16,057 nucleotides of DNA from an uncultured bacterium (GTDB lineage: Bacteria > CAIJMQ01), in contig CAZNJA010000031.1 in the NCBI GenBank assembly GCA_964573245.1, positions 1 to 16,057 of the forward strand, in the 5' to 3' direction. A model generated the notes under the pieces. It saw only the letters and a list, made by a program, of their open reading frames with translations. It was not told where the DNA came from and did not search any database. The position numbers and the translations under genes were made by a program. This document shows positions 1-550 of this stretch, one piece after another; position 1 is the stretch's first letter, and each line of letters opens with the position of its first letter.

Positions 1-550
1 TTCGGGTTTCTTGGGTGGCTTTGTGCCTTAATAAGAGATTTTTCTGCATCTTATCTCTTCTTAAATCAATATATCTGTATTTAAGCCGGACTTCTTCGCC
101 GATTTGCTCGGCATCAAGTTCAAAAGGAGGTGTTTCCGATTCGTTTAAAACTTTCATTTCATCAACAACAACTTCCAGTTTTCCCGTGGGAAGAGCTGTA
201 TTTACTGTGCCTTGAGGACGCGGTCTGACATCACCCCTTATGGCAATAACAAATTCGCTTTTTAAACTTTCGCCTCTAGCGTGTATTTCAGCACTCGTCT
301 GTGGGCTAAATACTATTTGTACAATACCCGTTTTATCCCACAGGTCAACGAAAATTACTCCGCCATGGTCTCGGCTTGTTCTAACCCAACCCATCAAGGT
401 AACAGTATCGCCTATTTCTGCGTTTGAAACTTCACCGCGCTCCGTCGCTGACGCCGTCGGACATAGCCCTATGGCGTCGGACGAAGCTATGGAGCGTAAG
501 CAACAATAATGCGTCCTTTTCCATCCGCCTAAACTTTCTATATTTGTCAT
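1..550 (-). CDS. aspS: Aspartyl-tRNA synthetase, N-terminal part (runs off the left edge); probably the non-discriminating Asp/Asn type
   Basis: Not in the ORF track. Manual translation from ATG at 550: MTNIESLGGWKRTHYC[22-aa insert]GEVSNAEIGDTVTLMGWVRTSRDHGGVIFVDLWDKTGIVQIVF...RPRPQGTVNTALPTGKLEV...PPFELDAEQIGEEVRLKYRYIDLRR. These are AspRS anticodon-domain and hinge motifs. The gene follows hisS, a common gene order. Confidence 0.96.
   Translation of the reverse strand, partial: MTNIESLGGWKRTHYCCLRSIASSDAIGLCPTASATERGEVSNAEIGDTVTLMGWVRTSRDHGGVIFVDLWDKTGIVQIVFSPQTSAEIHARGESLKSEFVIAIRGDVRPRPQGTVNTALPTGKLEVVVDEMKVLNESETPPFELDAEQIGEEVRLKYRYIDLRRDKMQKNLLLRHKATQETR
437..502. repeat. 66-bp palindromic in-frame insertion in aspS (encodes CLRSIASSDAIGLCPTASATER)
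   Basis: Splits the conserved RTHYC|GE motif. Outer arms cgctccgtcgct (438-449) and agctatggagcg (485-496) pair at 10/12. Inner arms are gacgccgt (450-457) and atggcgtc (471-478). Confidence 0.85.

Follow-up and report, generated by a model that had tools for sequence, protein, structure and literature searches.

A 66-nt GC-rich insert in a conserved motif of the aspartyl-tRNA synthetase gene of an uncultured bacterium and its probable place in a dispersed mini-repeat family

Introduction

How can an essential enzyme carry 22 additional residues in the middle of one of its conserved motifs, and where would such residues come from? The question is raised by a stretch of 16,057 nucleotides (nt; hereafter the window) from an uncultured bacterium, which is the entire contig C31 (CAZNJA010000031.1) of G000 (GCA_964573245.1), a metagenome-assembled genome (MAG) of 1.46 Mb in 110 contigs with 38% GC (0.384) and 93% completeness. 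The window begins with the 5ʹ part of aspS, the gene of aspartyl-tRNA synthetase (AspRS). A preliminary description, made from the letters alone, had noticed there a palindrome-encoded insert of 22 amino acids (aa) that splits the motif RTHYCG between Cys and Gly. Here we present evidence that bases 437–502 are very probably a compound mini GC-rich repeat, translated and tolerated as a disordered loop and selfish in the manner of the Rickettsia palindromic elements (RPEs). From sequence, we infer that the ribosome translates the loop, that the enzyme tolerates it, and that the element brings no benefit, being selfish or neutral.

Results

An in-frame insert in a bacterial-type AspRS

The aspS reading frame opens with an ATG at 550 and shows 183 codons before it leaves the contig, and with it the window, at the start. 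Its N-terminal reading (minus frame, 550..2) is MTNIESLGGWKRTHYC-CLRSIASSDAIGLCPTASATER-GEVSNAEIGDTVTLMGWV, the middle segment being the insert. Pfam recognized the tRNA_anti-codon OB fold (PF01336) at residues 50–135 of the product with an E-value of 4.7e-17, together with the beginning of tRNA-synt_2 (PF00152). Bacterial AspRS chains in the PDB matched the window protein with a best E-value of 1e-37, their alignments starting only at residue 38–40. Residue 39 of the window protein was paired with residue 7 of E. coli 1c0a, and the insertion point corresponds to the C6/G7 site. These matches point to a bacterial-type AspRS with an N-terminal OB-fold anticodon-binding domain and a class II catalytic core.

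When the gene was aligned at the nucleotide level with three genomes of the same genus and one of the same family, exactly 66 surplus bases were found at 437–502, with a boundary ambiguity of 1 nt. The RTHYCG motif was unbroken in the AspRS of 29/29 relatives and in 60/60 homologues from a 5.8-billion-protein collection. The preliminary description had placed 22 extra residues within the motif and proposed a comparison with orthologues; that comparison bears it out, as a similar loop was present in 0/29 relatives and 0/60 homologues. The spacing from R[TS] to GW[V] was 20–21 residues in 59 of the 60 homologues and 12 in the other one, compared to 42 in the window. The 66 nt themselves had no match in four relatives of the same family. 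The GC content over 421–500 is 0.62–0.63, against 0.384 for the genome. As the insert has no stop codon in the aspS frame and its length is a multiple of three (66 = 22 × 3), the ribosome most likely reads through it. Table 1 lists the features of the locus.

Table 1. Coordinates of aspS, the insert and its component parts in the window (L167 and L168 are metagenome contigs described in the text)
Feature	Position	Strand	Evidence or property
5ʹ part of aspS	2..550	-	Open reading frame, Pfam and PDB matches
In-frame insert of 66 nt that separates Cys from Gly in RTHYCG and encodes 22 aa (CLRSIASSDAIGLCPTASATER)	437..502	-	Alignments with relatives; identical 66 nt in L167
5ʹ half of outer 33-nt core unit, sense (T)GCTTACGCTCCATAGCTTC	483..502	-	nhmmer 504..483, E 6e-4
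Inner unit of 33 nt, sense GTCCGACGCCATAGGGCTATGTCCGACGGCGTC, nested in the core with AGCTTC and AGCGAC on its two sides	450..482	-	Same nesting point in L167 and L168
3ʹ half of outer core unit, sense AGCGACGGAGCGC	437..449	-	nhmmer 451..438
Direct repeat CGTCGGACATAGC / CGTCGGACGAAGC	455-467 and 475-487 (455..487)	+	13 nt, 85% identity
Outer inverted repeat	438-449/485-496	+	12 nt, 83% complementary
Inner inverted repeat	450-460/468-478	+	11 nt, 82% complementary
Predicted tryptic peptide of insert-bearing AspRS, SIASSDAIGLCPTASATER			

The insert recurs in other metagenomes

L167, a 319-kb metagenome contig from another species, carries a full-length aspS (656 aa, uninterrupted) with an identical 66 nt at the same codon, and its AspRS retains the invariant residues of the family. 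The homologue search of the 5.8-billion-protein collection returned no insert-bearing AspRS, and the protein of L167 itself was also not returned. Could the insert nevertheless be an artefact of assembly or binning, for instance because a repeat close to the end of a contig gave a chimeric join? It does lie about 440 nt from the end of the contig, and the core element described below was seen only in metagenome-assembled genomes. However, both flanks are colinear aspS in one frame, and contigs from other runs bridged both junctions without a difference (record 12 of run X3 over 280–487 and record 4 of run X2 over 436–829). Further, L167 has the same structure in a different metagenome and on a long contig, and core copies also occur in MAG records titled whole chromosomes (OZ252053.1 and OZ252215.1). 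We regard the chance of an artefact as next to negligible. The insert is real and specific to this lineage.

No contig without the 66 nt was seen in runs X2, X3, X6, and X9, although contigs drop rare variants. In X9, a freshwater-sediment run, a single 172-nt contig with a depth of about 4.6 was identical to the window over 436–541, that is, over the insert and 39 nt of 5ʹ coding sequence, while its codons 2 and 3 differed. Past the insert it continued with other GC-rich letters, of which the 30 shown were in frame and stop-free, which hints at a longer nested version of the insert.

The insert is compound

The outer 33 nt of the insert are one copy of a core of about 34 nt, GGTCGC(T/C)TACGCTCCANAGCTT(C/T)AGCGACGGAGCG, and the profile match of its 5ʹ half extends to 504, taking in 2 nt of the Cys codon. 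A contiguous core was found in an intergenic spacer of the same genome (G000:C17:455-489), where GCTTACGCTCCATAGCTTC + AGCGACGGAGC adjoin, the two parts being split by 33 nt in aspS. Another contiguous core lies on contig C84 of G005, a genome of another family in the same class. The contiguous form matches at 28/30 positions around the point that the inner unit occupies in aspS. Beside the G005 copy, a decayed transposase-like fragment of an open reading frame was read by eye.

The inner 33 nt had no other copy in G000, and they were found in only two metagenome contigs, L167 and L168, nested in both at the same point of the core. This fixed nesting point suggests that the insert is compound and moves as one unit. 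The preliminary description had suspected a compound insertion from an internal direct repeat, cgtcggac; the suspicion was right, since the outer 33 nt occur elsewhere contiguously without the inner 33 nt, and the exact pair falls inside the 13-nt direct repeat of Table 1.

Both tiers of inverted repeats in the hairpin proposed at the same time are present, with imperfect arms, and the fold is only moderately better than that of composition-matched shuffles. As RNA (91 nt), the predicted energy was -35.2 kcal/mol (z -2.31), with 3/200 shuffles equally good; as DNA (66 nt), it was -14.7 kcal/mol (z -1.59), with 10/200 shuffles equally good. The hairpin of the insert is real and imperfect.

The core is dispersed across phyla

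To describe the family, a 26-nt degenerate core pattern was scanned against one genome per prokaryotic species, and the copies found are biased by this fixed pattern. At least 127 stretches matched, compared to about 0.07 expected by chance for the 22 fixed bases. The 80 matches listed come from 37 MAGs, and the carriers among them belong to Terriglobia, Planctomycetota, Ignavibacteria, Bacteroidota, Sumerlaeota, Patescibacteria, Elusimicrobia, Dehalococcoidia, Thermodesulfobacteriota, and others. The sequence around the constant core is GC-rich and genome-specific. No match to the core pattern was found in viral contigs, and the pattern with up to two mismatches was absent from the relatives G001–G004.

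In the Terriglobia MAG of locus L040 (G041), a search with the flanks alone, the core being left free, found 130 copies of a composite repeat of at least 59 nt with the core at its center, and none in the reversed control. Most of these copies were identical and the remainder had scattered single changes, which gives the picture of a recently amplified repeat family. Taken together, the single insert of the preliminary description is, by these sequence matches, one copy of a widespread repeat family, and the constant core forms the center of repeats that resemble repetitive extragenic palindromic (REP) sequences or transposable elements of the miniature inverted-repeat type (MITEs) in uncultured bacteria of unrelated phyla.

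Core copies may also lie close together: L118 has two copies 64 nt apart, and L100–L102 are three copies on one 2.7-kb contig (Sungiibacteriota and Sumerlaeota MAGs). Within G000, BLAST and megablast-type searches found no second full 66-nt copy, and inspection suggested that the near matches at C50, C95, and C23 were due to chance. A degenerate core (AGCGTC for AGCGAC) was seen at G000:C39:9344-9367, directly after the apparent 3ʹ end of a putative tRNA gene. An Rfam 15 cmscan of three core-containing loci, with E-values up to 5, gave no match at the element. Sequence-string and keyword searches of the open-access literature met the string of the core only in unrelated primers and no description of a core that crosses phyla.

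Copies inside genes keep the reading frame

Most core copies are intergenic, between unrelated housekeeping genes; around 9/128 copies, the frame stays open for 240 nt or more on each side. A Pfam domain spans the core in L048 (ALAD, HemB gene), L112 (CdhD), L141 (GDP_Man_Dehyd/Epimerase, RmlB-like), and L165 (Amidohydro_1/allantoinase-like), the last being split as ...HINEPG | RTEWEG.... In L063, the core lies in a DnaA-family gene, past the ATPase domain. These in-gene cores use three sense-strand frames and one antisense frame, L063 and L112 being antisense. In L168 (region 733–931), the compound lies within an unrelated gene whose open frame spans 385 aa. It is read there in the frame used in aspS (...KASSDAIGLCPTASATER...), and a further GC-rich piece of about 30 nt is nested in the 5ʹ part of the core. 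The L168 copy encodes a single Cys, so the two Cys residues of the aspS insert are probably incidental. A dispersed multi-copy family with recurrent in-gene insertion and an intact frame is what characterizes RPE-like elements, and the sequences indicate that this family has both properties.

The same copies bear on the possibility that the insert is not translated and is instead removed from the mRNA (as a mini-intron or ribozyme) or bypassed by the ribosome as in T4 gene 60 or the mitochondrial 'byp' elements. A GC-rich, structured insert in an AT-rich gene at a highly conserved motif would suit such a mechanism, and its invariance between lineages with diverged flanks fits a function at the RNA level. 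The core can also be drawn by eye as an H-type pseudoknot (GTCGCT:AGCGAC and CGCTCC:GGAGCG). However, all in-gene copies seen keep the frame and have no stop, and no gene family split into two frames was seen by eye in the Pfam results for 237 flanking open stretches. Such a pattern is predicted by selection for read-through, whereas removal or bypass would not need it. In-gene copies in both orientations would not be allowed by a strand-specific RNA mechanism, and reading by eye found no matched pair of take-off and landing codons and no stop after take-off. There is no matching Rfam family, and no compensatory base-pair changes were seen by eye among 100 listed G041 copies, for which a formal covariation test was not made. 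Removal or bypass, which the preliminary description had also held to be the less likely outcome, is on this evidence very unlikely.

The enzyme probably remains functional

If the ribosome reads through the insert, the protein would gain an unstructured loop of 22 residues immediately ahead of the first strand in the anticodon-binding OB fold, and AspRS would remain functional despite it. The AlphaFold2 (AF2) model of the L167 AspRS matched solved bacterial AspRS structures (T. thermophilus and E. coli) at an E-value of 1e-62. Its residues 16–36 had a predicted local distance difference test (pLDDT) score below 50, compared to about 75–89 for the OB fold in 10-residue blocks. Short beta-bridges were predicted directly before and after the insert, which gives it the look of a loop with a common point of exit and re-entry. 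The structure modelling proposed at the outset thus gives a low-confidence loop on an intact OB fold.

The ratio of nonsynonymous to synonymous substitution rates (dN/dS) over the 161 codons flanking the insert was 0.07–0.09 in all comparisons (0.071–0.086), indicating strong purifying selection on these codons. This is relevant to the possibility that the insert-bearing aspS is decaying or non-functional and that the cell relies on another AspRS. The G000 gene is visible only to codon 183, and a second copy could be unassembled in a MAG that is 93% complete. On the other hand, the visible part has a dN/dS of 0.07–0.08 against close relatives with no frameshift or stop, and in L167 the orthologue that bears the identical 66 nt runs intact through 656 aa. 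No second aspS, which the preliminary description had proposed to look for, was found in G000; its only other class IIb core, on C57, is just 29–33% identical to AspRS and is read as lysyl-tRNA synthetase (LysRS). Decay of the gene is therefore extremely unlikely. That an essential enzyme tolerates a new loop, as first surmised, is the best-supported reading, given the intact L167 gene, the low dN/dS, the failure to find a second copy, and the modelled loop, with translation being presumed.

Identical inserts lie between diverged flanks

The window and L167 were compared on both sides of the insert. The flanks are identical at 362/483 positions (75%) and at 86/161 third positions, with a synonymous divergence (dS) of 1.70; of the 45 and 60 nt adjoining the insert, 34/45 and 37/60 are identical. 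The insert itself is identical at 66/66 positions, for which the chance is about 6e-9 at 75% identity per site. At the same time, the closest relatives of the window, G001 and G002 (85% nucleotide identity), are without the insert, and so is P0006, whose first 16 residues are those of the window. The protein of P0003 is identical to that of L167 at 625/634 residues (98.6%) and lacks exactly the 22 residues; 6/9 of their differences are close to the insert, at most 14 residues upstream or 4 residues downstream. The insert is thus polymorphic among very close alleles.

The identity of the insert despite diverged flanks, together with insert-free close alleles, indicates either recent spread between lineages or constancy at the nucleotide level. 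The first case would imply a recent move, either through recombination that carried short flanks along or through repeated insertion at one site. In the second, it would be ancient, constrained in its nucleotides, and precisely lost several times. A more specific form of spread, which we consider possible but doubtful, is that the 33-nt core is a cross-phylum, self-nesting mini-element that is kept constant for some conserved machinery, colonizes conserved sites of essential genes, and spreads in a homing-like manner by gene conversion with short co-converted flanks. It would explain the identical 66 nt at a dS of 1.7, the insert-free sister alleles, and the clustering of the L167/P0003 differences beside the insert.

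Another possibility is co-option: selection would then keep the insert for a new property lent to AspRS or its expression, either by the loop (with its extra Cys) or by the hairpin in mRNA or DNA. The 66 nt are identical across lineages with a flank dS of 1.7, and no fewer than three haplotypes have kept them (the window, L167, and X9). In addition, the hairpin is located some 50 nt within the coding region, and structure early in a coding region can modulate translation. However, close alleles manage without the insert (P0003 compared to L167; P0006, G001, and G002 compared to the window), and the same element is also found in unrelated genes and, for the most part, between genes. AF2 predicts a disordered peptide, and the L168 copy has one Cys only. 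We therefore consider co-option unlikely and retain the reading of a tolerated, translated repeat.

Mobility signatures at the core copies

In the alignment with four relatives, no target-site duplication longer than 1 nt was found at aspS, and no transposase was among the Pfam hits flanking 128 core copies. A link to the Y1 transposases of REP sequences (REP-associated tyrosine transposases, RAYTs) was considered but found no support. PF01797 (Y1 transposase, IS200/RAYT-type) had 11 hits in G041, seven in G043, one weak hit in G000, one below cut-off in G044, and none in G042, which is a multi-copy MAG. At 12 examined Y1 loci (11 in G041/G043 and the weak G000 hit), no full core was present within about 1 kb.

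Other GC-rich hairpin inserts and repeats

In G000, 17/31 hairpin-like GC islands lie in long open frames. Three hairpin inserts were checked at loci L169 and L170, whose gene names are read from sequence, and each of the three occurs in few or none of the relatives compared. A 19-aa GC-rich hairpin insert (G000:C22:10666-10723) stands just before KxDG in a LigA-like gene and is absent in all four relatives aligned. Hairpin inserts of 13 aa and about 20 aa (G000:C2:22472-22529 and 22725-22754) are found in a FolC-like gene, and the FolC-like gene of G002 has its own inserts at other positions. The L167 aspS has two more lineage-specific GC-rich hairpin inserts, at residues 347–357 and 484–513 (82% GC, -21.6 kcal/mol; 57% GC, -37.4 kcal/mol). 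Both are also present in P0003, and both have a pLDDT below 50 in the AF2 model, where they are placed at 348–356 and 482–511.

Further hairpin islands within long open frames of G000 were noted at C23:12166-12223, C44:8415-8444, C49:4759-4797, C92:1089-1120, C11:10146-10206, and C21:5178-5212. Several islands are members of a CCTGCCCGC...GCGGGCAGG family whose translation reads '...PAR(S/F)D..(S/K)(E)QAGG...'. The spacer between aspS and hisS (560–830 of the window) contains three hairpin-of-hairpins modules (~573–630, 637–712, and 742–830) with common TTGTAGT...ACTACA ends. These modules had no self-BLAST partner at an E-value of 1e-4 or better, and an Rfam match of one of them to MIR9560 was at chance level (24.7 bits, cut-off 74). 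Many intergenic double-hairpin repeats of 60–110 nt around GGACT(T/A)AGTCC were also noted in G000, for example at C1:12828-12895, C8:9966-10055, and C12:21081-21190. By self-BLAST, 129 regions of G000 had at least five partners.

Discussion

We propose that the insert is probably a compound, RPE-like repeat that is translated and tolerated. Several observations weigh against this reading. The insertion site falls within a motif that ranks among the most conserved in the N-terminal part of AspRS, and an added loop of 22 aa might be expected to do harm there; G000 shows its aspS only to codon 183, the contig end cutting the rest. Translation of the loop is, moreover, what we infer from the frame. 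Zero substitutions in the insert against a flank dS of 1.7 would not be expected of a coding segment of the same age that is merely tolerated. The hairpin energy only modestly beats that of shuffled sequences. G000 holds only about three core copies, with two to three besides that in aspS, and signatures of mobility, in the form of a target-site duplication of more than 1 nt at aspS or a transposase flanking the core copies, were not found.

Rickettsia provides the best-known examples of selfish palindromes that sit in frame in proteins, and here the carriers would be free-living uncultured sediment bacteria and the unit a smaller, modular one of 33 nt. The core can occupy strictly conserved motifs, as in AspRS, and Pfam domains, as in the HemB-, RmlB-like, and allantoinase-like genes. 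The locus may serve as a natural experiment on the tolerance of an aminoacyl-tRNA synthetase for inserted sequence, and such repeats could be a source of new surface loops. They also call for caution in annotation and in marker-gene alignments built from MAGs. The question raised is what moves a 33-nt element across phyla and why it is invariant.

How does the element compare with known systems? In bypass elements, such as those of T4 gene 60 and the mitochondrial 'byps', the take-off and landing codons match, a stop follows the take-off site, and the frame need not be preserved. The aspS insert resembles them as a GC-rich structured insert within coding sequence; it differs in keeping the frame and in having neither a stop nor a matched codon pair. 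MITEs are likewise small, multi-copy, structured, and non-autonomous, and can form in-frame fusions with host open reading frames. The aspS element has inverted arms, but the duplication is at most 1 nt, no parent insertion sequence was identified, and the unit is far smaller.

The small dispersed repeats (SDRs) of cyanobacteria are reportedly shorter than 30 nt, mobile, nesting, and occasionally found in conserved genes. If so, they would be the nearest precedent for tiny self-nesting units, in a comparison that leaves homology aside; they differ in their hosts, which are cyanobacteria, and in sequence.

REPs are usually regarded as species-specific and as flanking their RAYT gene. The 130-copy composite of G041 looks like a family of REPINs, the elements built from REP sequences. 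REP sequences and REPINs are described as overwhelmingly extragenic and mobilized by RAYT (Y1) transposases (Bertels & Rainey 2011, PMC3116915). They are short (20–40 nt), imperfect, GC-rich palindromes in tens to hundreds of copies that insert into or beside each other (PMC3116915), which is a likeness to the present element. The aspS-type core, in contrast, crosses phyla, sits inside genes too, and has no full copy close to the Y1 loci examined.

The closest likeness in behavior is to RPEs, which are described as palindromic elements of about 150 bp found in frame in many unrelated Rickettsia genes (Ogata et al. 2000; review PMC10969869). Like the element described here, RPEs are dispersed palindromic repeats that occur in frame in unrelated housekeeping genes and also in intergenic DNA (PMC10969869). 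The RPE is said to be translated, adding a peptide segment that the fold is considered able to accommodate (PMC10969869), and the same presumably applies to the aspS insert. The two differ in size and range: RPEs measure about 150 bp and are described from Rickettsia (PMC10969869), whereas the aspS element has 33 or 66 nt, nests in itself, and occurs in at least 37 MAGs of many phyla. Judged on size, with sequence homology not compared, the aspS element would not be a member of the RPEs, but it appears to work like one.

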